Shown here one piece after another: positions 1,877 through 52,472 of a stretch of DNA of 64,000 bases. Each line of letters begins with the position of its first letter. The stretch's first letter is position 1. Source of the stretch: Phycisphaerales bacterium (lineage in GTDB: Bacteria > Planctomycetota > Phycisphaerae > Phycisphaerales > UBA1924); assembly GCA_046156035.1 (NCBI GenBank), contig JBJXEW010000016.1, positions 15,185 through 79,184 on the forward strand, read 5' to 3'. The translations under genes were made by a program, and so were the position numbers. The notes under the pieces were generated by a model, which was not told where the DNA came from, did not search any database, and was given only the letters and a program-made list of their open reading frames with translations.

Positions 1877-2023
1877 GACTTGCTCCTTGGAACGCCAAAC
1901 CACCAACCCCTGAATCCCACGCCGTCCTCAGCCCGCCCTTGCGCCTCGCCTGCTTAGTTGTACGAGGATTTCGGCTGTTTGGCACGTCAAAAGACTGCCT
2001 TTGTTTGGAGAACCGAACCCTTA

Positions 2024-2065
2024 CTGACAGGACGCTGTCAGTGGCGACTGACAGCGCCATGTCAG
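2024..2065. promoter_or_regulatory. Two tandem 18-bp palindromes CTGACA-N6-TGTCAG (candidate operator pair) in the divergent region upstream of pilT
   Basis: 2024-2041 is CTGACAggacgcTGTCAG and 2048-2065 is CTGACAgcgccaTGTCAG, with centres 24 bp apart. They lie in a locally less GC-rich 376-bp divergent intergenic region. Confidence 0.45.
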
Positions 2066-2251
2066 GGGTGGGCCCCGGGAGGTACCGATGGTCCCGACGC
2101 GGCCGGTTGTGCGGGTTGGCGAAGGGCCGCGGCGCGGGGAGGCTGTGCCGCGAAGGCGGGGACACGTGCGAGCACATTGGCCTTGCGGCGCGGGTGTGGC
2201 ACGTCGATCAACTCAGGGTTCGGGGTCTTCCTGCACCGGGAGGGGTTTGCC

Positions 2252-3307
2252 ATGCAACTCATCGACATTCTCAAGGCCGCGTACGAGGCTGACGCGTCGG
2301 ACATTCACCTGGTGGCCGGGCACGCGCCCGTGATGCGGGTGCACACGGTGGTGTCGCCGCTGGACATGCCCGTGCTCTCGGCGGAAGTCTGCATGGGGTT
2401 CGTGAAGGAGATGGCCCCCAAGGAAGCCTTCGCCCGCTTCGAGCAGAACAAGGACGCCGACTTCTCGTTCTTCGCGCAGGGCATCGCCCGCTACCGCGTG
2501 AACGCCCACATGCAGCGCGGCGCGGCGGCCCTGGCCCTGCGCATCGTGAAGACCAAGGTGCCGCCCTTGGAGAAACTGAACCTGCCGGACGTGATTGCGC
2601 GGCTGACCTACCTGCCACGCGGCTTGGTGCTGGTGACGGGCGACACGGGCAGCGGCAAGAGCACGACGCTGGCGGCGATGATCCAGAGCATGAACGAGCG
2701 CTACAACAAGCACATCATCACCCTGGAAGACCCGGTGGAGTACACGTTCCAGAGCCAGACGTCGCTGATCGAGCAGCGCGAACTGGGGCAAGACATGCCC
2801 AGTTTCGCCTCGGCCCTCAAGCACGCGCTGCGGCAGGACCCGGACATCATCCTGGTGGGTGAGATGCGCGACCTGGAGACGACGGCGCTGGCCATCACGG
2901 CGGCGGAGACGGGCCACCTGGTGCTGAGCACGCTGCACACGGTGAGCGCGAGCCAGACGGTGGAGCGCATCATCGACATGTACCCGGCCAACCAGCAGAA
3001 TCAGATCCGCTCGATGCTCGCCAACACGCTGCAGGCGGTGGTGAGCCAGACGCTCTTCTCGAGGATCGATGCCCCGGGCATGGTGCCCGCTGTGGAGGTG
3101 CTGCTGTGCACGCCCGCGGTGCGCAACCTGATCCGCGAGGCCCGGACGTTCGAGATTCCCAACGTGATCGAGACGAGCAAGGCCCTGGGGATGACAACGC
3201 TCGACAAGAGCATCGCGGAGTTGTATTTCAACGGGATGATCAGCCGCGACGATGCGATCGCTTCTTCCACCATGCCCGACAAACTGGAGCGGCTGCTCGC
3301 CGCCTGA
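2252..3307 (+). CDS. pilT: type IV pilus twitching-motility (retraction-type) ATPase PilT
   Basis: 351 aa from ATG 2252 (GGGAGGGG RBS). Walker A GDTGSGKST, Walker B DPDIILVGEMRD, His box TGHLVLSTLHT, and PilT-specific AVRNLIRE motif. The N-terminal extension of ORF 1958.. has no family similarity. Confidence 0.9.
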   Translation: MQLIDILKAAYEADASDIHLVAGHAPVMRVHTVVSPLDMPVLSAEVCMGFVKEMAPKEAFARFEQNKDADFSFFAQGIARYRVNAHMQRGAAALALRIVKTKVPPLEKLNLPDVIARLTYLPRGLVLVTGDTGSGKSTTLAAMIQSMNERYNKHIITLEDPVEYTFQSQTSLIEQRELGQDMPSFASALKHALRQDPDIILVGEMRDLETTALAITAAETGHLVLSTLHTVSASQTVERIIDMYPANQQNQIRSMLANTLQAVVSQTLFSRIDAPGMVPAVEVLLCTPAVRNLIREARTFEIPNVIETSKALGMTTLDKSIAELYFNGMISRDDAIASSTMPDKLERLLAA

Positions 3308-3312
3308 GGGCA

Positions 3313-3439
3313 GGCACTGGGCATCGGGCACTGGGCACTGGTGTTCCGGTCCTGATGCCTTGCGTGTGCCGCAGATCCCCTCGTTTAACCGTTTCGCCTC
3401 GTGATCCTCCCCAGTGCCTAGTGCCCAGTCCCCAGTGCC
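3313..3439. repeat. Family A element: inverted pair of 29-nt arms built from (GCACTGG)-like heptamers, between pilT and pilC
   Basis: Left arm 3313-3341 is GGCACTGGGCATCGGGCACTGGGCACTGG. Right arm 3411-3439 is CCAGTGCCTAGTGCCCAGTCCCCAGTGCC, an imperfect reverse complement. Spacer is 69 nt. The left arm is 29/29 identical to the reverse complement of 17926-17954. Confidence 0.85.
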
Positions 3440-3454
3440 TTCCGCTTCTTCATC

Positions 3455-4681
3455 ATGCCCCTTTACCGCTACACAATCCGAACCACCGGCGGGCAGGCAC
3501 AGACCGGCACGGTGACGGCCGAGTCCATCGCCACGGCGGCCACGGTGCTGCGCAACCAGGGCGCGCACGTGCTGTCGATCTCGCCGCTGAAGGATGCGCT
3601 CATCAGTTCAGGCCTTGCGGCGCGGATCAAGGAACTCAACGCCGGCAAACCCAAGGCCAAGCACGTTCTGGACTTCACCACGCAGTTGGCGGTGATGATG
3701 CGTGCCGGCATCAATCTGCGTGCCGCGCTTGACGGGATCGCCGAGCAGACCGAGCACCCCAACTTCAAGAAGGTGATTCTGGCGATCAAGGGCGACGTGG
3801 AGGCGGGCAAGCAATTCTCGGCGGCGCTGCAGCGGCACCCGCGTCTGTTCGGGCCGCTGTACATCCACATGGTGCGCGCGTCGGAGATGTCGGGCGCGTT
3901 CGCCCAGATGCTCGACCGCATCGCCGGGTACATCGGCCAGGAGATCGAGACACGCAAGATGGTGATCGGCGCGGCGATCTACCCCGGCGTGATCGGCACC
4001 ATGGCGGTGGGCGTGACGGTCTTTCTGCTCACGTTCGTGCTGCCCAAGTTCAAGGCGGTGTTCGCGGGCAAGGAGGACGTGCTTCCGGGGCCAACCAAGT
4101 TCCTGCTGGGCCTGTCGGAACTCATGGTGGCGCAGTGGCCCCTGATCCTGGGAGCGGTCATGCTCGCCATCGGCGGGCTGTACGCGTTCAGCCGGACCGC
4201 CGTGGGCTCGTTCTGGATCGACAAGATGAAACTCACGATCCCGATCCTTCGCACGATGTTCCGCTCGCTGTACATCAGCCGGTCTCTCCAGACCATGGGC
4301 CAGTTGGTGAACGCGGGCGTGCCGATGCTGGACACGCTGGCGATCACCGGCGACATCTCGGGCAACACGTTCTACCGCAACCTGTGGAAGAGCGTGTACA
4401 CGAACGTGAAGCAGGGCAAAAAGATCGCCCAGCCGCTGCAGAAGAGCCCGCTCTTGCCGCAGAGTGTGGTGCAGATGATCTCGGCGGGTGAAGAGTCCGG
4501 AAAACTGGGCGAGGTGCTCGACGAGATCTCGGTGTACTACGCCAAGCAGTTAAAGGACCACATCAAGACGGTTACCAGCATGATCGAGCCCATCATGATC
4601 GTCATGATGGGATCGGTCGTCGGTTTCATCGCCATGGCGATCATTCTGCCCATCTTCAAGATGAGCCAGATCGTAAAGTGA
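3455..4681 (+). CDS. pilC: type II secretion system F family / type IV pilus platform protein (PilC/GspF)
   Basis: 408 aa with a cytoplasmic N-domain. Hydrophobic segments are AAIYPGVIGTMAVGVTVFLLTFVLP, WPLILGAVMLAIGGLYAF and IEPIMIVMMGSVVGFIAMAIILPIF. The duplicated GspF-type architecture ends ...ILPIFKM. Confidence 0.85.
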   Translation: MPLYRYTIRTTGGQAQTGTVTAESIATAATVLRNQGAHVLSISPLKDALISSGLAARIKELNAGKPKAKHVLDFTTQLAVMMRAGINLRAALDGIAEQTEHPNFKKVILAIKGDVEAGKQFSAALQRHPRLFGPLYIHMVRASEMSGAFAQMLDRIAGYIGQEIETRKMVIGAAIYPGVIGTMAVGVTVFLLTFVLPKFKAVFAGKEDVLPGPTKFLLGLSELMVAQWPLILGAVMLAIGGLYAFSRTAVGSFWIDKMKLTIPILRTMFRSLYISRSLQTMGQLVNAGVPMLDTLAITGDISGNTFYRNLWKSVYTNVKQGKKIAQPLQKSPLLPQSVVQMISAGEESGKLGEVLDEISVYYAKQLKDHIKTVTSMIEPIMIVMMGSVVGFIAMAIILPIFKMSQIVK

Positions 4682-34380: not shown

Positions 34381-34746
34381 ATGGTGCCACTGGCCTCCGA
34401 TCTGCGTGGACGCGACAAGACCGTGCTGGTCTTGCGGTTGCCCTCGATGGTCACCGATGAGCAGGTCTCGATCATCCGCGAAGAGTTCCTCTCACGCATG
34501 CCGCGCCTGTCGGGGGCGGGCCTGGTGATGGACTTTTCCGCCGTCGAACTCATCAACTCCATCGGCATCACCTGTCTCCTCCAACTTGAGGAGGACTGCC
34601 GACGCCAGAAGGCGACCATGCTCATGTGTCAAGTGCCGGCGGCCATCGCCCAGTTCTTCCGCCAGTTGAAACTGGACCGACGGTTCACGGTCATCAAGGA
34701 CATCGACACCGCGGTGGACTCGATCGAGAGTCAGGCCACGCGCTAG
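34381..34746 (+). CDS. STAS-domain protein (anti-sigma-factor antagonist-like)
   Basis: 121 aa. LVLRLPSMVTDEQVSIIREEF...VMDFSAVELINSIGITCLLQL...LMCQVPAAIAQFFRQLKLDRRFTV fits the SpoIIAA/STAS pattern. Confidence 0.75.
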   Translation: MVPLASDLRGRDKTVLVLRLPSMVTDEQVSIIREEFLSRMPRLSGAGLVMDFSAVELINSIGITCLLQLEEDCRRQKATMLMCQVPAAIAQFFRQLKLDRRFTVIKDIDTAVDSIESQATR

Positions 34747-35765
34747 ACCCGGTCGTTGGGTGTCACGGCCCGGTCCACACGCAGCGCCCGCGCACCCTTG
34801 AACTGCCCGATGTGGGCCAGAAACTTCTTCTCACCCTCCACGCACAGCACCACCGGCTTCGCCAGCGGCTTGTCGGTCGCCACGATGTCGCCCACGGCCA
34901 GGCCGCGCAGATCACTGATCGTCATGGTCGTCTCCGCCAGCAGCCCCGTGATGGTCAGCGGCGCACGGTTGAGCGACCGGGCGATACGTCGCGGCGTGTC
35001 GTCGGCCCGGCCCGCCTTGGCCACGCTGAACCACGACTGGCTCGCGAGGTCCTCCATGATCGGTTCGATCACGTTGTAGGGAATGCACAGGTTCATCGTG
35101 CCGGCCCGGCTCGCCATCTTCAGTTCAAAGCCGATGACCACCACCACCTCGTTGGGGGGCACGATCTGCACCAGTTGCGGGTTGCTCTCAGTGGCGTTGA
35201 TCTCGAACGTGATCTGCTTCACGCTCTCCCACGCCTCGCTCAGGGCCGCAAGCCCGCGGCTCGTCACGTTCGAGATCAGGCGGCTTTCGATCAGCGTCAT
35301 CGGCCTCTGCGGGATGAACAGGTCCTGGTTCGTGCCCCCCAGCAGGCGGTCGATGATCGGGTAGATGATCAGCGGGCTGATCTCCAGGCACATCTGCCCA
35401 TCCAACGGCCGGTTGCTGATGAGATTGAAACTCGTCGGGTTGGGCAGCGCCGCGATGAACTCGCCGTAGGTCATCTGCTCGCAACTGGAGACCTTCACCT
35501 CCACGATCGTGCGCAGGAAGCCCGAGAGAGCCGCACCGAAGTTGCGCGCGAAACTCTCGTGCAGCGTCTGGAGCGCACGCATCTGGTCCTTGCTCACGCG
35601 CTCGGGCCGCTTGAAGTCATACGGACGGATCTCCACCGTCGCAAGGTCACGCCGGTTGCGGCTGAAGATCTCCGTCCCGGAATCCTGCCCCGCAACCGGG
35701 GCCTCCCCCGTCTCCACCGCCGAGAGCAGCGCATCGATCTCGGATTGGTCGAGCACGTCGGCCAT
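34743..35765 (-). CDS. fliM: flagellar motor switch protein FliM
   Basis: 340 aa. The N-terminal CheY-P binding motif is LDQSEIDALL. The middle domain has FESRLIS-like blocks. The C-terminal FliN/SpoA-like domain is TISDLRGLAVGDIVATDKP. Confidence 0.88.
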   Translation of the reverse strand: MADVLDQSEIDALLSAVETGEAPVAGQDSGTEIFSRNRRDLATVEIRPYDFKRPERVSKDQMRALQTLHESFARNFGAALSGFLRTIVEVKVSSCEQMTYGEFIAALPNPTSFNLISNRPLDGQMCLEISPLIIYPIIDRLLGGTNQDLFIPQRPMTLIESRLISNVTSRGLAALSEAWESVKQITFEINATESNPQLVQIVPPNEVVVVIGFELKMASRAGTMNLCIPYNVIEPIMEDLASQSWFSVAKAGRADDTPRRIARSLNRAPLTITGLLAETTMTISDLRGLAVGDIVATDKPLAKPVVLCVEGEKKFLAHIGQFKGARALRVDRAVTPNDRV

Positions 35766-41447: not shown

Positions 41448-42718
41448 GCATCACACGCCCGAAGGGATTCGTCGCGGCGGGCGTGAAGGCCGGCATCAAG
41501 CCCAGCGGCAAGCCCGACCTTGCCCTCATCGTGCGCACCGCCCCCGACGGGCCCGGCGCGGCCTTCGCCGCAACCTTCACCACCAACGTGATCGTCGGGG
41601 CACCCATCGAGATCGCCCTCGGCCAACGGGCCGCGGCCCTTGCGGCCCGCGTGAATGCCAGCGGCGCAGTGCACGCGGTGAAGGCCTTCCTCATCAACGC
41701 GGGCAACTCCAACTCGGCCACGGGCCAGCAGGGCGTGCGTGATGCCCACGAGTGCATGGCCGCTCTGGCCACAGCCCTCAACTGCGAACGCGACCGCGTG
41801 ATGCCCAGTTCCACGGGCGTCATCGGCCGCCTGCTCCCCACCGCGAAAATCGTGGACGCGGTCCCGGCGCTCGTGCAGGCTTTGGCGAGCGGGCCGCAGG
41901 CCGATGCCAGCGCCGCGGCCGCCATCATGACCACCGACCTCGTTCCCAAGGCCGCGTTCGCAGAGGTCGTGATCGGCGGCGCCAAGGTGAGCATCGGCGC
42001 AATCGCCAAGGGCAGCGGCATGATCGCCCCACGCCTGGATTCCGCCAGCGGCCCGCCGCCCCCAAGCGCCACCATGCTCGCGTTCATCACCACCGATGCC
42101 GCGATTGATTCGCCCACGCTCCAGACCGCGCTCGACGCGGCTTGCGGCGCCAGTTTCAACCGCATCAGTGTGGACAACCACCCCTCGTGCAGCGACACCG
42201 CCGCCATCTTGTCCAGCGGCCTTGTCGGTCCACCTATCCGCGCCAGCACGCGAGAGTTTGCGGCCTTCGCCGCTGCGTTGCAGGCCCTGTGCGAAGACCT
42301 CGCCGAGCAGATCGTGACCGACGGAGAAGGCGCGACCCGCACGTTCCGCGTGGTGGTCGAGGGCGCGGCCACCGATGCCGATGCCGAGCGCATGGCCCGC
42401 GAAGTCGTGAACTCGCCGTTGGTCAAGTGCGCCATCCATGGCCGAGACCCCAACTGGGGCCGCATCGTCACGGCCGCGGGCAACGCCGGCGTGCGATTCG
42501 ATCCCTTGCAGGCATCGCTCGCCATCGGCCCCGTCGTCGTCTATCGCTCAGGGGTGCCACTGCCCGAGGCCCTCGTTGATCCGCGCCTGCCTGTGGCCAT
42601 GGCCAGCAAGCGTGTGGACTGCGTGCTGCGTGTCGGCACCGGCCCCGGCCGCGCATGGATGATCGGCTGCGACCTGAGCGCCCAGTACGTGAGCATCAAC
42701 GCGGACTACACGACGTAG
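41444..42718 (+). CDS. argJ: bifunctional glutamate N-acetyltransferase / amino-acid acetyltransferase ArgJ
   Basis: 424 aa. MSITRPKGFVAAGVKAGIKPSGKPDLALI, autoprocessing site PSATMLAFITTDAAI, C-terminal ...YVSINADYTT. The ATG overlaps the upstream stop (ATGA). Confidence 0.92.
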   Translation: MSITRPKGFVAAGVKAGIKPSGKPDLALIVRTAPDGPGAAFAATFTTNVIVGAPIEIALGQRAAALAARVNASGAVHAVKAFLINAGNSNSATGQQGVRDAHECMAALATALNCERDRVMPSSTGVIGRLLPTAKIVDAVPALVQALASGPQADASAAAAIMTTDLVPKAAFAEVVIGGAKVSIGAIAKGSGMIAPRLDSASGPPPPSATMLAFITTDAAIDSPTLQTALDAACGASFNRISVDNHPSCSDTAAILSSGLVGPPIRASTREFAAFAAALQALCEDLAEQIVTDGEGATRTFRVVVEGAATDADAERMAREVVNSPLVKCAIHGRDPNWGRIVTAAGNAGVRFDPLQASLAIGPVVVYRSGVPLPEALVDPRLPVAMASKRVDCVLRVGTGPGRAWMIGCDLSAQYVSINADYTT

Positions 42719-42719
42719 T

Positions 42720-42743
42720 GAAGGCACGAAGGGACGAAGGCAC
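42720..42743. repeat. Family B element (three octamers) 1 nt after the argJ stop
   Basis: The units are GAAGGCAC GAAGGGAC GAAGGCAC. The same GTGAAGGCACGAAGG string occurs at 8347. Confidence 0.8.
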
Positions 42744-42792
42744 AGGGGCCCGGAGAATGGCGCTGCCGCCCGCTGGTTCTACGATCCCGAGA

Positions 42793-44319
42793 ATGCCCGA
42801 CCGTGTCCGCATCACCGACGTCTCGCCGCGAGACGGCCTGCAGAACGAGGCCGGCGTGATCGCCACGGCGGACAAGGTCCGCCTGATCGAACTGCTCGCA
42901 CGGACGGGTGTGGATGAAATCGAAGCGACCAGTTTCGTCAGCCCCAAGTGGGTGCCGCAACTGGCGGACGCGGCTGAGGTGGTGAGGGGGCTGGCGGCAC
43001 TTGTACGCGGCGGCCCTTACTCCCCCTCCCAGAGGGAGGGGGCAGGGGGGTGGGCAGACAGGCATCAGGAACCCTCTGGGGGTCAGGCACCTGCCTCGCT
43101 CGATCCCCCACCACGCTGGCAACCTCCACTCAAGAAGCAGACCACGCTTGGGCAAGCCAAGGCGCTCCGCCGCGCCGCGACAGGCCCCGAGAAGGCGCTC
43201 TGGGAGGTGCTCCGGCAACGCGAGTGGATGGGCGCAAAGTTCAGACGACAGCATCCATTTGGCCCTTTCATCCTCGATTTTTTCTGCCAGGACAAACTCC
43301 TTGCCGTGGAGGTTGACGGCCAGACACATCGAGGTGCCATCCGAAAGAGTGAAGATGCGCAGCGCGACCTGTTCATCCGGTCATGGGGCGTCGAGGTTTT
43401 GCGGTTCACGAACAACGATGTCCTGGGTTCGCCCAGCGGCGTAGCGGCCAGAATCCGCGATGTCCTGCGCGTGCGACCCTCGCTGGGTACCACCAAGCCC
43501 CTGCCGCCCACCCCCCACCCCCTCCCTCTGGGAGGGGGCTTCGATCCATCAGCCCATCTGCATGGCCCTCCAATCCCCCTCCTCTCCGCCCTCGTCCCCA
43601 ACGAGCGAGGCCTGGACACCTGCCTCGCCGCCAACGCCGCGGCTGGCGGCCCGCTCCTCGGCAAAGTCTCCGTCTTCACCGCCGCGTCCGAGACTTTCTC
43701 CCGCAAGAACACCAACGCATCCATCGCTGAGACCATCGAGCGTTTCAAGCCCGTCATCAGCCGCGCCCACGAAGCCGCCCTGCTCGTGCGCGGCTACCTC
43801 TCCTGCATCATCCGCTGCCCCTTCGAGGGCGACATCGCCCCCGGCGCGGTCGCCGAGTGCAGCGGCCGCCTCCTCGAACTGGGCGTGGATGAACTCGACC
43901 TGGGCGACACCATCGGCGCGGGCACACCCGAAACCGTGCGGGTGATGCTCGACGCGGTGAGCCGCGTCTGCCCGCTCAACGGCTCGCGCGTGCCCCTCAC
44001 GCTGCACCTGCACGACACGTTCGGCCAAGCCGCGGCGTGCGTGCTTGCCGCGCTCGATATGGGCGTGCGTTCCTTCGACGGCTCCGCTGCGGGCCTCGGC
44101 GGGTGCCCCTACGCCAGCACCACGAAGCCCGACGGCACGGTGCAGCGCGCCCCCGGCAACATCAGCACCGAGTTGCTCGTGCGCACCATTCACTCCGCCG
44201 GCTACACCACCGGCGTGGACCTCGCCGCGCTCGACGAGGCCGCCGCATTCGCACGCCAGATCGTGGCCACGGCCCGCGCCGCCGCTCGGCCCGGGCCTGC
44301 TACCGGAGGTCCCGCATGA
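42793..44319 (+). CDS. hydroxymethylglutaryl-CoA lyase interrupted in-frame by a DUF559 endonuclease-domain cassette
   Basis: MPDRVRITDVSPRDGLQNE...FVSPKWVPQLADAAEVVRGL, then a ~180-codon insert, then LLSALVPNERGL...VFTAASETFSRKNTN...VRGYLSCIIRCPFEG...DTIGAGTPE...HLHDTFGQA...GLGGCPYA. It is a single open frame. Alternative start ATG 42757. Confidence 0.85.
   Translation: MPDRVRITDVSPRDGLQNEAGVIATADKVRLIELLARTGVDEIEATSFVSPKWVPQLADAAEVVRGLAALVRGGPYSPSQREGAGGWADRHQEPSGGQAPASLDPPPRWQPPLKKQTTLGQAKALRRAATGPEKALWEVLRQREWMGAKFRRQHPFGPFILDFFCQDKLLAVEVDGQTHRGAIRKSEDAQRDLFIRSWGVEVLRFTNNDVLGSPSGVAARIRDVLRVRPSLGTTKPLPPTPHPLPLGGGFDPSAHLHGPPIPLLSALVPNERGLDTCLAANAAAGGPLLGKVSVFTAASETFSRKNTNASIAETIERFKPVISRAHEAALLVRGYLSCIIRCPFEGDIAPGAVAECSGRLLELGVDELDLGDTIGAGTPETVRVMLDAVSRVCPLNGSRVPLTLHLHDTFGQAAACVLAALDMGVRSFDGSAAGLGGCPYASTTKPDGTVQRAPGNISTELLVRTIHSAGYTTGVDLAALDEAAAFARQIVATARAAARPGPATGGPA
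43021..43538 (+). mobile_element. DUF559 (Vsr-like endonuclease fold) cassette bounded by ~37-bp imperfect inverted repeats
   Basis: The arms are 43021-43057 TCCCCCTCCCAGAGGGAGGGGGCAGGGGGGTGGGCAG and 43501-43538 CTGCCGCCCACCCCCCACCCCCTCCCTCTGGGAGGGGG. The interior encodes ALRRAATGPEKALWEVLRQREWMGAKFRRQHPFGPFILDFFCQDKLLAVEVDGQTH...LFIRSWGVEVLRFTNNDVL. Exact ends are uncertain by a few nt. Confidence 0.7.
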
Positions 44320-46710: not shown

Positions 46711-48144
46711 GTGCGGACCATTGCCATCATCAATCAGAAGGGCGGCTGCGGCAAGACCACCACGGCCATCAACCTCGCGGGCGTCTTCAGCCGCTCAGGT
46801 CTGCGCACGCTGCTGGTAGACCTTGACCCGCAAAGCCACTGCGCCGCGGGCCTGGCCATCCCCGAGCAGCGCATCGACGTCCACATCGGCGACGCGATGC
46901 TCACCAAGGATGAAGACTCCATCGACTGGATGCGCCTCCTGTGGCGCATCAGCCGCAACCTCGACCTCGCACCCAGCACCGTCCGCCTGGCGGGCCTCGA
47001 ATCCGCCCGCGGCGGGCTGGCCGCCCTCGACCGCAGCCACCAGCGCCTCACCAGCGTCGTCTCCCGTCTCGCCGACCAGTACGACATTTGCCTCATCGAC
47101 TGCCCCCCCGCCATCGGGCTGCTCACCTACAACGCCCTCGTGGCCGCAAGCGAGGTGCTCGTGCCGGTCGAGACTGCCTTCTTCGCTCTTCAAGGGGCTG
47201 GCAAGCAGATCAGCACGATCAAGGCGCTCGCCAAACGCTTGGGCGTCGCGGCCCCACACCGCCTGCTCGCCACCATGCACCACGAGGCCAACCCCCTCGC
47301 GTGCGACCTGCTCGGCGAGTTGAACCGCCGCTTCGAGGGGCATGTGTCGCCGGTGGTCATCCGCTACGACACCCACCTGCGCGAGGCCGTGAGTTTCGGC
47401 CAGCCAGTCGTTGAATACGCGCCGCATTCGGCCGGCGCGCAAGACTACACGGCCCTGGGCCGCTGGCTCATCGAGAACCCCGTCGGTCGCACCACCATTC
47501 CCGAGGGTGCCCCCATTTCCGAGAGCGCCCCGGCCGACCCCTCACCGGTGGTCGTGTTGCAGCGTGTACCCGCACCAGCCCCCCACGGCCCAACCCCCGC
47601 TCTGGAGCCCGCGCCGGTGATCCCGCCTCTGGCCGCCACCTCCTTGCTCACGTCGGCAGAGGAGCCCGTCCTCAGCCGCGCCGCCGACCTTGCCGCGCGG
47701 GCTCAGCGACTGCTCGCTCGCACGAGCGTGCTGCAGGAGCCGTCGCCGCGGGCGATGTCGCTCAACGAGTTTTCAAAGCAGCGCGCCACCGCCCGCGCCG
47801 GTCGCGAAACCGGTCAATCGCTCATGGGGGTTCGGCACACCTCGCAGGGCGTGCTCTTCGTGCAGCCACTCTCGGCCGGCAAGGTGCTGGCTATCGCCGG
47901 AGACTTCAACCGCTGGTCGCCCGAGGCCACGCCCATGCGTCTGAACCCGGCGCTGGGCGTGTACGAGGCTGTTGTGCCACTTCCGCCGGGCCGCTTCCAA
48001 TACCGCATCGTGGCCGACGGCCTCTGGATCACCGACGTCTACAACCCCGACCTCGAGCCCAACCCCTTCGGCGAAGCCAACAGCGTGATCGACGTCACCA
48101 GCGAGCACGCGGCCACCCAAACACCCGCCACGTCCGCGGCCTGA
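46711..48144 (+). CDS. ParA/Soj-family ATPase fused to a C-terminal CBM48 / AMPK-beta-type glycogen-binding domain
   Basis: GTG 46711 (GGAGCACC upstream). Deviant Walker A is IINQKGGCGKTTTAINLA, then VDLDPQ, and Walker B is YDICLIDCPP. A ~130-aa Pro/Ala-rich linker follows. The C-terminus VLAIAGDFNRWSPEATPMRLNPALGVYEAVVPLPPGRFQYRIVADGLWITDVYNP matches the GDFNNW...G.Y.YKF.VDG.W pattern. Confidence 0.85.
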   Translation: MRTIAIINQKGGCGKTTTAINLAGVFSRSGLRTLLVDLDPQSHCAAGLAIPEQRIDVHIGDAMLTKDEDSIDWMRLLWRISRNLDLAPSTVRLAGLESARGGLAALDRSHQRLTSVVSRLADQYDICLIDCPPAIGLLTYNALVAASEVLVPVETAFFALQGAGKQISTIKALAKRLGVAAPHRLLATMHHEANPLACDLLGELNRRFEGHVSPVVIRYDTHLREAVSFGQPVVEYAPHSAGAQDYTALGRWLIENPVGRTTIPEGAPISESAPADPSPVVVLQRVPAPAPHGPTPALEPAPVIPPLAATSLLTSAEEPVLSRAADLAARAQRLLARTSVLQEPSPRAMSLNEFSKQRATARAGRETGQSLMGVRHTSQGVLFVQPLSAGKVLAIAGDFNRWSPEATPMRLNPALGVYEAVVPLPPGRFQYRIVADGLWITDVYNPDLEPNPFGEANSVIDVTSEHAATQTPATSAA

Positions 48145-48182
48145 ATGGTCCCCAGTTCACGCAGGAAGAGGAGCGTTGGCCG

Positions 48183-49631
48183 ATGATCGCCGATCCGGGC
48201 CACATCCGATCTCAGCACGAAGCCGCGTACGAGGCGCTGGCCGATTTGTTCCTGGGCGAACTCTCGCAGGTCGCCGCCCACGACGCCGCGCTGGGTGTGA
48301 AACCATCGCACGAGCGCCGCACACACGCCGCGGTCGGCACGCACCCCCACCTGCACCTGGTGACCGCCGAGCCGGCCGACCGACCCGAGGCGTTCGATGC
48401 GCCCACCGGTCCCGGTTCATCGCTCGCGCCCATGCAGATCGAGGCCCTTGTGCTCGGCCACCTGCCGGTCATCGCGGGGGCATGGGCCGGGCAGTACGTG
48501 CGGCACGTGGCCCAGCGCTCCACCCGCCCCGTGGCCCTGGTTCGCCTGTGCGGAGCGAGCATCCGCATCGAGTTGCATGACGCGGGCGCCCCCACCGACT
48601 CCAGGCCGCAGACCTTTGTTGCTGCGGGAAGCCTGACGGATGCGGTTGCTGTGCTGTGCCGGCAGCGCACCCACGTGGTCCTGCACGTCGACCCGCACGA
48701 GGAAGCCCCCCTGGCCGCCGCATGCGCGGCCGCCTCCACGCACGGCATGGGCATCGTCACCATGCTCACCAGCGCCGACGATGCGGGCATCGTGGGTGCC
48801 TATCAGACCATCACCCGGCTCTCACGCGGCATCGAAGCGGGGCAGGGGCTGCACGACACCGCAACACTCAACGTGGTCATCATGGGGGCACCGGAGGCCC
48901 GGGCCCAGTATGTCTGGCGACGCTTGCAAGAAGCCACTGAAACCTTCCTGGGCATCGAGATCTCACTCGCGGCGTGCATCAAGCGAATCGGGTCGGGCCC
49001 TCCGGGCAGGGTCGTGTACGAAGGTCCGTTCACCGCCGGGGCCGTAGCGGTGACTTCATTGCTCACCACCGCGCCAACGACGGAGCCGGCCGCCGCGGCG
49101 GTGCCGCAGGCGCTCACGCTTCCCGCTGGCGCCAAGGCTCTCGTCACACCCGATGCCCGCATCGTTGAAGCGCCGGCCGCGCCCCAGCCTGCATCACAGG
49201 CCGGCGCCGTCGGACCGCGCGCGGACAGCGGTTCGGTGCCCACGGGGCCGTCTGCACTGGCCGCGTGCCTGCCGGGCCTCACGATCCTGCGGGCCCGCTG
49301 CCCGCACGCCGAGGATGTGGAACTCGCGGTGGATGCGGAGGGCCTGCTGCACCTCCTCGCACGCTACCGCACCGATGAGCCCGATCATCGCGTGGTCGAA
49401 CGCCTCCACGCCGCTGCGTGCTGGGCTCGCGTGCACGCCAAGGTGCTCTCCCTCACGTTGCCCGGTGAGGGGGCGGGCACCACGCTCGATGCCGCGTCGC
49501 CCACGCGCCACCTGTTTACAGACCGGCCCGCCGAGCACCGCGCCCTGTTCGACAGCGACGTCAGAATGCACCTGCTGGTGGCTGTGCCACGCGAGCACGC
49601 ATCGCCGTGGGTGTGCGCGGCCGTGAACTAG
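48183..49631 (+). CDS. hypothetical protein (482 aa), possibly a P-loop-less ParA/MinD-like fold
   Basis: ATG 48183 with GAGGAG 9 nt upstream, 39 nt after the ParA-CBM48 gene. The strand/helix pattern IEALVLGHLPVIAGAWAGQYVRHVA ... THVVLHVDP ... GIVTMLTSADDAGIVGAYQTITRL ... LNVVIMG resembles a degenerate ParA-type ATPase core without a Walker A lysine. Confidence 0.6.
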   Translation: MIADPGHIRSQHEAAYEALADLFLGELSQVAAHDAALGVKPSHERRTHAAVGTHPHLHLVTAEPADRPEAFDAPTGPGSSLAPMQIEALVLGHLPVIAGAWAGQYVRHVAQRSTRPVALVRLCGASIRIELHDAGAPTDSRPQTFVAAGSLTDAVAVLCRQRTHVVLHVDPHEEAPLAAACAAASTHGMGIVTMLTSADDAGIVGAYQTITRLSRGIEAGQGLHDTATLNVVIMGAPEARAQYVWRRLQEATETFLGIEISLAACIKRIGSGPPGRVVYEGPFTAGAVAVTSLLTTAPTTEPAAAAVPQALTLPAGAKALVTPDARIVEAPAAPQPASQAGAVGPRADSGSVPTGPSALAACLPGLTILRARCPHAEDVELAVDAEGLLHLLARYRTDEPDHRVVERLHAAACWARVHAKVLSLTLPGEGAGTTLDAASPTRHLFTDRPAEHRALFDSDVRMHLLVAVPREHASPWVCAAVN

Positions 49632-51173: not shown

Positions 51174-51521
51174 TTATCTGGACGGTCGCGTTCGCGGCGC
51201 GTTCGGCCCCGTGGCCCCGGTGCCCTTCGTTGCTGCGGACTTCATCCCCGCGCCCGTCGCCCGGGCTAGGCGCGCCTTGGCCGCGGCAAACTCCTCGTCG
51301 CTGAGCCGCCCCTCATCGTGCATGGCCCGCAACTGCGACAGCAGGCCCGCGTGACCCACCGCCGCGTCTTCGCCCGAAAGCATCTTCCGCCGCAGCACCA
51401 TGATCACCGCCGAAAGCAGCATCACCACGCCCACGAGAATGGCCGTCCACAGCAGGAGCGATGCCTCCCCGGAACCGCTCGGCGTTTGGGCAACGGTGCT
51501 TTGCAACAGCCAACCCCTCAC
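51174..51521 (-). CDS. SHOCT-domain membrane protein
   Basis: 115 aa with a GTG start. The TM segment is LLLWTAILVGVVMLLSAVIMVL, then LSQLRAMHDEGRLSDEEFAAAKARL (SHOCT motif). Confidence 0.65.
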   Translation of the reverse strand: MRGWLLQSTVAQTPSGSGEASLLLWTAILVGVVMLLSAVIMVLRRKMLSGEDAAVGHAGLLSQLRAMHDEGRLSDEEFAAAKARLARATGAGMKSAATKGTGATGPNAPRTRPSR

Positions 51522-52252
51522 GAACTCGACGAAGCAATCGCCTGGCGTATGGGCATGAGCAGGTTGGGCACCACACGCGTTCGCACGATCTCCTCGCCCG
51601 TCTCCGCCAGCGCCGTCTGGATTGTGAGCAGGTCGTCGATCTGGCGCACGCTCCCCACGCGCCGCAGCGTGAGGTACACGCTGATCACGCCCTCACCCTC
51701 CGCGCTGGGCGACCGCGGCCCGCGCTCGTTGCGGGTCTTCACCTCAAAGAACGCCTCCACGGGCTCCGGGCCTTCCAGCGTCATCGCCAGCATCGGCTGC
51801 ACGTTGCTCGGCGTGGCCCCCGGCAGGCTCATGAGCGAGGCCAGCGGGTGGCTCTCGCCCTGCCCGTACAACGCCTCGAACACAATCGCATCGTGGTTCC
51901 CGCCCGCGGCCATGTCAAAGCCATAAACCAATTCCACGCAGTCCACATCCAGCGGGCTGATCGACAGGAAATACGGGGCCGTCTCCAGCACCAGACGGTG
52001 CAGGCGGTACGCCTCCTTCGGGTTGGTCGGGTTCACCACGCCCGAACGCAGGCTCGTCTTCCTCAGTGACACCCACAGGGGGTGCTCATCCTCTTGTGAG
52101 GACTCCAGCGCCAGTTCACCGCTCGCCCGCTCGAAGCGGTCCATGCGGGGGAACTCCTTCCGCACGCGGTCGAAGATCGCCAGCACGGCCTCGCGGGCGG
52201 TGGGCAGGTCCATCTTCAGACTCAGGCGCTGATTGACATAAAAATCTGACAC
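51518..52252 (-). CDS. hypothetical protein
   Basis: ORF 51518..52375. Likely start is GTG 52252 or ATG 52213 (MDLPTAREAVLAIFDRVRKEF...). The stop overlaps the SHOCT gene start. No family recognised. Confidence 0.55.
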   Translation of the reverse strand: MSDFYVNQRLSLKMDLPTAREAVLAIFDRVRKEFPRMDRFERASGELALESSQEDEHPLWVSLRKTSLRSGVVNPTNPKEAYRLHRLVLETAPYFLSISPLDVDCVELVYGFDMAAGGNHDAIVFEALYGQGESHPLASLMSLPGATPSNVQPMLAMTLEGPEPVEAFFEVKTRNERGPRSPSAEGEGVISVYLTLRRVGSVRQIDDLLTIQTALAETGEEIVRTRVVPNLLMPIRQAIASSSS

Positions 52253-52472
52253 CCACGCCGCGTAGTTCGGCGCGGGCTCGTTGCGGTCGTCGGGCGGACG
52301 CCTGTTGGGGGGTCGGTGTGCGATGGGAGAGTGTATTCTGGCAACGCGGAAAGGGAAGCCGCCTTGACCTCCCACTCGCAGCGGTTCGGCCCCCGTTATT
52401 GTTCCTCCGCGCTCGCGCCAAACGCCACACCGTCAGTTCGCCCTCCGGCCTCGCGTAGACGATAATTACACC

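Follow-up and report, generated by a model that had tools for sequence, protein, structure and literature searches.

Within the 64-kb window studied here (the whole stretch of 64,000 nucleotides analysed, from contig JBJXEW010000016.1 of a Phycisphaerales bacterium), a gene called gene 1 below joins a deviant Walker A ATPase of the ParA type to a glycogen-binding carbohydrate-binding module (CBM) like that of AMPK beta subunits, and it is followed directly by a gene for a conserved partner protein. The reading we favour, tentatively, is that of an ATP-switched system which tethers and positions cytoplasmic glycogen granules. It starts from the following parts of gene 1 (aa, amino acids).

46711..48144, forward strand: gene 1, fusion of a ParA-type ATPase, a linker and a CBM48 domain (open reading frame, ORF, of 477 aa with a GTG start; Pfam AAA_31/CbiA and AMPK1_CBM)
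46711..47484, forward strand: ATPase domain of the deviant Walker A, ParA/Soj type, aa 1-258 (PDB sequence matches; invariant catalytic residues)
46738..46761, forward strand: deviant Walker A motif KGGCGKTT, aa 10-17 (read from the translation; K10, G11, G12, C13, G14, K15, T16 and T17 are invariant columns)
47485..47826, forward strand: Pro/Ala-rich, weakly conserved linker, aa 259-372 (20 Ala and 17 Pro among 114 aa)
47662..47727, forward strand: basic amphipathic helix in the linker, EPVLSRAADLAARAQRLLARTS, aa 318-339 (sole conserved island of the linker)
47818..48108, forward strand: AMPK-beta-type CBM48 glycogen-binding domain, aa 370-466 (PF16561 and PDB sequence matches)

The fusion had been proposed in the initial annotation, and it stands: the ORF is exact, AAA_31 and AMPK1_CBM both score above their cut-offs, and the motifs quoted there (KGGCGKTT, DLDPQ at aa 37-41, LIDCPP at aa 128-133 and GDFNRW) are all present in the translation. 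The GC content at third codon positions is 0.86, typical for coding sequence of the window (65-72% GC).

The C-terminal domain carries the motif AGDFNRW...PPGRFQYRIVADGLWITD at aa 396-442 and matches AMPK1_CBM (PF16561) over aa 389-465 (E=8e-8; score 32.8 bits, the gathering cut-off being 26.8). Among the profiles that the initial annotation had suggested searching, this one and CbiA lie above cut-off, whereas CBM_48 (PF02922) falls marginally below it (21.6 bits against 22.4). When the C-terminal 109 aa were compared with PDB sequences by phmmer, the CBMs of AMPK beta2/beta1 came first (2f15, E=3e-7; 1z0n, 1.6e-6), with the starch-binding CBM of SEX4 (4e-4), then pullulanase and GlgB, further down. 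The sugar contacts of rat AMPK beta1, which we take to be W100, K126, W133, L146 and N150 in the AMPK CBM-cyclodextrin structure, align to W402, R432, W439, F453 and N457 of gene 1. Across 240 sequences from two clades of the family, W is found at the first of these positions in 240/240, R at the second in 236/240, W at the third in 239/240, F/Y at the fourth in 238/240 and N at the fifth in 236/240, so that conserved sugar-binding residues, for which the initial annotation had proposed a check, are borne out by the alignment to AMPK beta1. This near invariance is the strongest evidence that glucan binding would be the selected function of the CBM. As far as can be judged from sequence, the glucan site of gene 1 looks intact, and the domain probably binds glucan. 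Gene clusters for carbohydrate-active enzymes of the glycogen type are commonly predicted in Phycisphaerae, according to a class-wide genomic survey (PMC11266412).

The N-terminal domain matches the profiles AAA_31 (aa 1-176, E=2.6e-41, 141.9 bits, cut-off 27), CbiA (E=1.2e-17, 64.5 bits, cut-off 25.4) and CBP_BcsQ (61.4 bits, cut-off 21.3). Its closest PDB sequences are the ParA 8ray (E=8e-41), Thermus Soj 1wcv (2e-33) and H. pylori Soj 6iub (9e-32). Walker A Lys15, Gly11, Asp39 of DLDPQ (switch I / Walker A') and Asp130 of LIDCPP (Walker B) are present in 120/120 family members, and the signature Lys10 is an invariant column in a 26-sequence alignment of the gene 1 family. The features that define ParA/MinD proteins in sequence (deviant Walker A with signature Lys, both Asp residues and a curated profile match) are thus all present, and the ATPase looks active. 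The gene 1 product opens straight on the first ATPase beta-strand (MRTIAIINQKGG) and has no signal peptide; it should therefore be cytoplasmic, so the glucan that it encounters should be glycogen. For the same reason a glucan-containing envelope structure, which the initial annotation had entertained as a target, is unlikely.

The fusion is by no means peculiar to this genome. A protein search listed 120 clusters with 47-87% identity to gene 1, all with ParA-type and PF16561 domains; those that bear a name come from Phycisphaerae, Phycisphaerales or Phycisphaeraceae and are called 'AAA family ATPase' or 'chromosome partitioning protein'. These belong to the window's clade, clade A; a second set of 120 clusters, clade B, was reached through locus L030, which has no partner gene. 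The clade-B clusters listed are likewise all ParA plus CBM and all from Phycisphaerae/Planctomycetota, and the same two-domain architecture, with PF16561 precomputed, is found in all 240 listed homologue clusters. A degenerate DNA pattern built from the invariant CBM residues had 1 match in the window with 0 expected by chance, and proved specific to clade A (103/120 clade-A vs 1/120 clade-B proteins matched). In the GTDB species-representative genomes it was found in at least 120 different assemblies, labelled in the database records mostly as Phycisphaerae, Phycisphaerales, Tepidisphaera or 'Planctomycetota' metagenome-assembled genomes, with a few Isosphaeraceae and Planctomycetaceae; wherever one of these loci reaches far enough, its ParA domain is found directly upstream of the CBM. 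Among complete genomes of Phycisphaerae, CP054186.1, CP051526.1 and OZ243106.1 have the clade-A cassette and CP070827.1 has clade B. This chromosomal family is a large one and, going by record names, does not extend beyond Phycisphaerae/Planctomycetota. None of the PLSDB plasmids covers at least 80% of the fusion protein. A plasmid partition gene was also considered and rejected, the best PLSDB matches, to the ParA part only, being at most 38% identical, and the context in the window being of the housekeeping kind (IF-2, NusA, AspRS, ClpX, AccD, Rpe, ArgJ, LptD and Lnt).

The two clades differ in the residues through which Soj proteins hold DNA. In the H. pylori Soj-DNA structure, DNA is contacted non-specifically by K199, K227, K230 and K247, and a mutant altered at all four shows no DNA binding (PMC6393308). 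The share of basic residues at these four positions in clade A is 66%, 31%, 43% and 0%, in that order. At the position of B. subtilis Soj R189, which we take to be a further DNA contact, it is also 0% in clade A, whereas 114/114 aligned clade-B sequences have Arg there, Arg at the K199 position and Lys at that of K230. Judged by these residues, the canonical Soj DNA site is not under selection in clade A, which leaves the use of the nucleoid as a matrix unsupported there; other conserved arginines of clade A, R207 and R218, might substitute in DNA binding. The contacts kept in clade B make the nucleoid the likely positioning matrix in that clade. No homologue of the partner was found in four clade-B loci within about 4-8 kb either side (the extent of each locus). 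A gene divergent from the ParA-CBM gene occurs in the clade-B loci L125 (5931-7598, reverse strand) and L126 (6033-7619, reverse strand), and the proteins encoded, of 528-555 aa and with no Pfam family, share an N-terminal hydrophobic segment, 3-4 internal repeats with 'GDGTGTPGFD' and 35% identity between the two loci.

Gene 1 does not have the features of a ParABS system. With a B. subtilis Spo0J sequence as query, tblastn gave no ParB match in the window, in 126 related loci (1.0 Mb) or in the clade-B loci examined, and the parS consensus TGTTTCACGTGAAACA, allowing up to 3 mismatches, had 0 matches in the 64-kb window, although a divergent parS could escape such a scan; the initial annotation had likewise seen no parB or parS-like neighbour. 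All NCBIfam partition equivalogs score far under their cut-offs for gene 1 (NF041546 ParA_partition, 92.9 vs 180; also the RepA, SopA and PrgP models). There is thus no adjacent ParB, no parS in the window, no conserved set of DNA contacts and no equivalog score that reaches its cut-off.

What the initial annotation took for an orphan ATPase, whose built-in cargo module replaces an adaptor, has a companion. The ORF directly downstream, which had gone unrecognised, encodes the conserved partner (gene 2), and its parts are these.

48145..48182, forward strand: 38-bp spacer between both genes (purine-rich, ribosome-binding-site-like AGGAAGAGGAG at 48163-48173)
48183..49631, forward strand: gene 2, conserved partner of 482 aa (co-oriented, 38 bp 3' of gene 1)
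48228..48260, forward strand: N-terminal acidic motif of gene 2, aa 16-26, which reads YEALADLFLGE here (YDALADLFLG in the near-invariant consensus of the family)
48435..49070, forward strand: partner central domain with a predicted MinD/FlhG/ParA-like fold but no P-loop, aa 85-296 (AlphaFold2, AF2, with a predicted local distance difference test score, pLDDT, mostly >90; Foldseek)
49257..49628, forward strand: partner C-terminal alpha/beta domain, aa 359-482 (AF2 of the domain alone, pLDDT 92.6)

Among the 120 GTDB loci listed, a co-oriented partner follows the fusion gene in 110/120 by tblastn and in 2 more by hidden Markov model (HMM) search, while 7 loci end too early and 1 (L030) is without it. 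The survey of the fusion and its downstream gene that the initial annotation had called for therefore yields a family conserved in at least 120 GTDB species, with the partner conserved downstream. Two complete or near-complete Phycisphaerae genomes (L001 and L002) have a partner homologue adjoining the fusion gene downstream (33-37% identity), with the remaining neighbours of the cassette differing. No terminator-like or sigma-70-like site was found in the 38-bp spacer, and the two genes would be co-transcribed. Neither Pfam nor NCBIfam has a matching family for the partner, those of the ParB/Srx, helix-turn-helix (HTH) and ribbon-helix-helix types included; an exhaustive profile search nevertheless gave 1617 representatives at 50% identity, nearly all full length.

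The AF2 model of the partner (mean pLDDT 78.8) has five regions: N-terminal helices, a disordered stretch, the folded part at aa 85-296, a Pro-rich disordered stretch and the domain at aa 359-480. The acidic motif falls in the first of them, aa 5-25 being modelled as helix; F23 is invariant, both partner alignments have D17, L19, L22, L24 and G25 in no less than 90% of their sequences, and A20 reaches at least 90% in one of these (A3) and D21 in the other (A4). Over the N-terminal 40 aa, the median net charge in the partner family is -5. A comparison of the gene 1 and partner family alignments by hhalign gave a lone, non-significant pairing of the last helix of the ATPase, DYTALGRWLIE (aa 247-259, window 47449-47487), with partner aa 14-26 (48222-48260, YEALADLFLGE), which may be chance or a hint that the motif mimics that helix.

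For the central domain, Foldseek against the PDB gave FlhG 4rz3 as the best match (E=3e-5, prob 1.0), other matches being FleN, HypB, ArsA, MinD, MipZ, McdA (6nop) and Soj, all of them SIMIBI NTPases, and the sole PDB sequence matches of the partner family profile are to FleN/FlhG, although weak (E=0.009-0.2). After beta-strand 1, where Walker A would be expected, the partner has G92-H93-L94-P95...W101, with neither Lys nor Ser/Thr. The central domain is thus a predicted pseudo-ATPase, sharing with MinD/FlhG the modelled fold only. This likeness would place the partner in the same functional world as gene 1. The C-terminal domain had no Foldseek match in the PDB at E<1e-3, and its weak resemblances are to PD-(D/E)xK nuclease-like folds (SduA, 1.4e-2; EndoMS; Hjc). 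A nuclease-like DNA-binding role for this domain was considered and set aside, the Foldseek matches being weak (E>=0.014), no conserved D/E-x-K set being present and the charge being acidic. The domain has a median net charge of -2, and every domain of the partner is acidic or neutral, which argues against a DNA-binding analogue of ParB.

The linker of gene 1 is Pro/Ala-rich, as the initial annotation had it, and at 114 aa it is slightly shorter than the ~130 aa given there. Both its length and its sequence differ across the family alignment, apart from the basic helix (net charge +2, isoelectric point 11.5), whose pattern SRAxDLAxRAxxL matches, as a strict regular expression, 70/120 clade-A and 0/120 clade-B proteins. 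Clade A thus combines lost canonical DNA contacts, a gained linker helix and a partner, which suggests a possible interaction between the helix and the acidic motif; binding the N-terminal motif of the partner may be the helix's role.

Each half of the cassette can be set against systems that are already known. With chromosomal ParA/Soj proteins (1WCV, 6IUB, 8RAY), gene 1 shares a deviant Walker A domain of ~255 aa with its signature Lys, Walker A Lys and catalytic Asp, but it differs in a ~220-aa C-terminal extension ending in CBM48, in having C/Y/H/H/A at the DNA contacts and in the ParB, parS and equivalog results given above. With McdA-McdB, PomXYZ, MipZ and ParC/PpfA it would share the use of a ParA/MinD-family ATPase for cytoplasmic cargo other than DNA (presumed here), and with McdA-McdB and orphan ParA-like systems an adjoining, fast-evolving partner from a small family with disordered regions; McdA is among the PDB matches of gene 1 (6noo) as well as of the partner model (6nop). 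In contrast to these systems, where McdB, PomX/Y, ParP and TlpT are separate cargo adaptors, gene 1 has a cargo-binding module fused to the ATPase itself. Compared with McdAB-type systems, moreover, the putative cargo would be a polysaccharide granule and the partner has a predicted MinD/ParA-like fold without a P-loop, being also far larger than McdB and acidic in its N-terminal motif where the McdB peptide is basic. FlhG, FleN and MinD resemble the partner central domain in predicted fold (Foldseek prob 1.0, E=3e-5 to 8e-4), but the partner has G-H-L-P...W in place of KGGxGK[ST], adds the N-terminal acidic motif and a C-terminal domain, and has no evident C-terminal membrane-targeting helix. 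The CBM belongs to the same family (PF16561/PF02922) as those of AMPK beta, SEX4, PTST and GlgB and keeps their Trp-Lys/Arg-Trp-Leu/Phe-Asn sugar-contact set, with Lys126 of AMPK beta replaced by Arg and Leu146 by Phe/Tyr. Those proteins carry it on a kinase scaffold, a phosphatase, a coiled coil and a GH13 enzyme, whereas gene 1 carries it on a ParA ATPase.

If glycogen is indeed the cargo, the flexible linker (~115 aa) would tie a functional ParA/MinD-type ATPase permanently to glycogen through the C-terminal CBM48. ATP-dependent dimerisation would pair two CBMs, so that many dimers on each granule would give a strong multivalent attachment, and ATP hydrolysis would bring release. The ATPase cycle would in this way space the granules and distribute them to both daughter cells, in the manner in which plasmids and carboxysomes are handled by ParA-family systems. 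In clade B the likely matrix for positioning would be the nucleoid. In clade A the partner would regulate the ATPase cycle or give a second attachment point, possibly through the linker helix, and glycogen itself may provide the surface, much as the membrane does for MinD. Glucan binding, dimerisation, what the partner does and how the granules end up placed are all what we infer from sequence and predicted structure. Full-text searches of the literature, within the library covered, found no paper linking a ParA/MinD ATPase to CBM48 or glycogen, in agreement with the initial annotation, which knew of no characterised system of this kind; no published description was found.

A more far-reaching version of this proposal would give Phycisphaerae a ParA-family machine of their own that serves a polysaccharide storage granule, which would be the first ParA/MinD system with the ATPase fused directly to its cargo-binding module. 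It would exist in an ancestral-looking, stand-alone form bridging nucleoid DNA and glycogen and in a derived form, that of the window, which has no canonical DNA contacts and a P-loop-less MinD-like partner and perhaps cycles on glycogen as MinD does on the membrane. So extended, the proposal is less likely than not.

Several observations weigh against the proposed positioning of glycogen. No glycogen-metabolism gene is linked to the cassette, either in the window or in the 126 loci. The window protein is non-basic at all five Soj contacts (C198, Y219, H222 and H239 at the positions of HpSoj K199, K227, K230 and K247, and A193 at that of BsSoj R189), so that the nucleoid-templated positioning suggested in the initial annotation is doubtful for clade A, while it keeps its plausibility for clade B, where three are retained. 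Glycogen particles are small and numerous in most bacteria, which leaves it less than obvious why they should need active partition, and AMPK-type CBMs are also able to act as protein-interaction or regulatory modules. On the side of the partner, its likeness to MinD/FlhG rests on a predicted model (template modelling score ~0.5) and weak sequence matches, its N-terminal motif is acidic where the ATPase-stimulating peptides of ParB, McdB and MinE bear Lys/Arg, and its derivation from gene 1 by duplication, which was tried as an explanation, was rejected, hhalign of the two family alignments being not significant (prob 0.14).

Among other explanations, it is conceivable, though unlikely, that the CBM reports on glycogen or is regulated by it, as a sensor in the manner of AMPK, where this module is known to be regulatory, and that ATPase and pseudo-ATPase steer another positioning task, for example at the division site or a polar complex, by analogy with MipZ, PomXYZ or MinD. 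The gene 1 family is found almost throughout the sampled class and lies amid housekeeping genes, the partner is similar to the localisation regulators FlhG/FleN/MinD, and the Phycisphaerales undergo binary fission without FtsZ, using a division machinery that is unknown (PMC5147048). However, division, flagellar and chemotaxis genes are not consistently linked to the cassette in 123 loci, and gene 1, which ends in the CBM, has no membrane-targeting helix evident at its C-terminus. The strict conservation of the sugar contacts suits a genuine binding of glucan, but sensing and the binding of cargo are not told apart by it. Rather less probable still is a scaffold, in which the ATPase-CBM protein and its partner recruit or organise the enzymes of glycogen synthesis or degradation on the granule, or set granule initiation or number. 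CBM48 is established as the targeting module of SEX4, which is among the phmmer matches, and of PTST-type proteins, and PTST2/3, plant CBM48 proteins that deliver enzymes to starch, would be the functional analogue of such a scaffold. The well-folded C-terminal domain of the partner could bind an enzyme, and the long flexible linker fits a tether. Against this, there is no linked glg gene in the window or the 126 loci, and a ParA-family ATPase acting as an enzyme scaffold on a polysaccharide has no known precedent; sequence data alone do not separate a scaffold from granule positioning.

It seems improbable that the C-terminal beta-sandwich has left sugar binding behind and become a protein-protein interaction or dimerisation module, with a cargo unrelated to glycogen. 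E-set/CBM48-like folds often form modules that have no part in carbohydrate binding, the Pfam score of 32.8 bits is modest and CBM_48 stays just under its cut-off, but five sugar-contact positions are kept or conservatively replaced in ~98-100% of the 240 sequences from two diverged clades, as would not be expected if the site were unused, and each of the best relatives of solved structure is a true binder of glucan. We give least credence to the idea that gene 1 is the lineage's partition ATPase for the chromosome (or other DNA) with an accessory domain, the partner being a novel centromere-binding replacement for ParB. The nearest solved relatives of the ATPase domain are indeed chromosomal ParA/Soj proteins, with ~36-38% identity to a B. 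subtilis Soj sequence, Joint Genome Institute records label many members 'chromosome partitioning protein', the gene order from ATPase to partner resembles that of par operons, and the C-terminal domain of the partner is weakly like nuclease-like DNA-binding folds. Yet the partner has no ParB/Srx or HTH match and is acidic in all domains, the window has no parS consensus, the Soj DNA-contact residues are lost in clade A, the NCBIfam partition equivalogs remain far under cut-off and the strict conservation of the glucan contacts would be left without a reason.

Beyond the partner, the surroundings of the cassette vary. All-against-all clustering of neighbours in the 123 loci found recurring families only for aroB (32 loci), clpX (16), rsfS (13), lipoate ligase (11) and a metallo-beta-lactamase-fold protein (9). 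The aroB gene (3-dehydroquinate synthase; L002 8583-9812) lies immediately 5' of the ParA-CBM gene in 32/123 loci and clpX lies near it in 16/123, the window included, and this proximity looks like lineage-level synteny, not a functional link. Beyond clpX, the window has two co-oriented genes that are not kept beside the cassette in other loci, one for a 285-aa protein with no family match (51518-52375, reverse strand) and one for a protein of 115 aa whose sole match, SHOCT-like and C-terminal, stays under the threshold (51174-51521, reverse strand).

Further away, genes for a type II/IV secretion ATPase and platform protein (T2SSE, T2SSF) and the flagellar switch gene fliM are found at 1958-4681 (forward strand) and 34743-35765 (reverse strand), which suggests that the organism probably has pili and flagella; these are other typical clients of MinD/ParA-like regulators. 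At 42655-44319 (forward strand), a 554-aa ORF of the HMG-CoA-lyase family (PF00682, in two stretches) is split in frame, the interrupting part being a DUF559 / Vsr-like endonuclease domain (PF04480; aa 166-271; E=8e-28), and looks as if a domain or mobile element had been inserted into the gene of a metabolic enzyme.

ParA/MinD ATPases are the general bacterial means of placing large objects, among them chromosomes, plasmids, carboxysomes, chemoreceptor arrays and the divisome. To our knowledge, no such system has been described for the positioning of glycogen, which is more widespread than any other carbon store of bacteria, and if the granule reading is true a new class of cargo would be added to that list, one that is predictable from sequence through the built-in glycogen-binding module and for which point mutants of the CBM are obvious. 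The two clades, one with DNA contacts lost and a partner, the other with contacts kept and no partner, offer a natural comparison, and the partner family, with its 1617 representatives and no Pfam model, would be a new kind of ParA partner. Phycisphaerae being FtsZ-less planctomycetes whose cell organisation is largely unknown, any conserved module of spatial organisation in this group would be informative.

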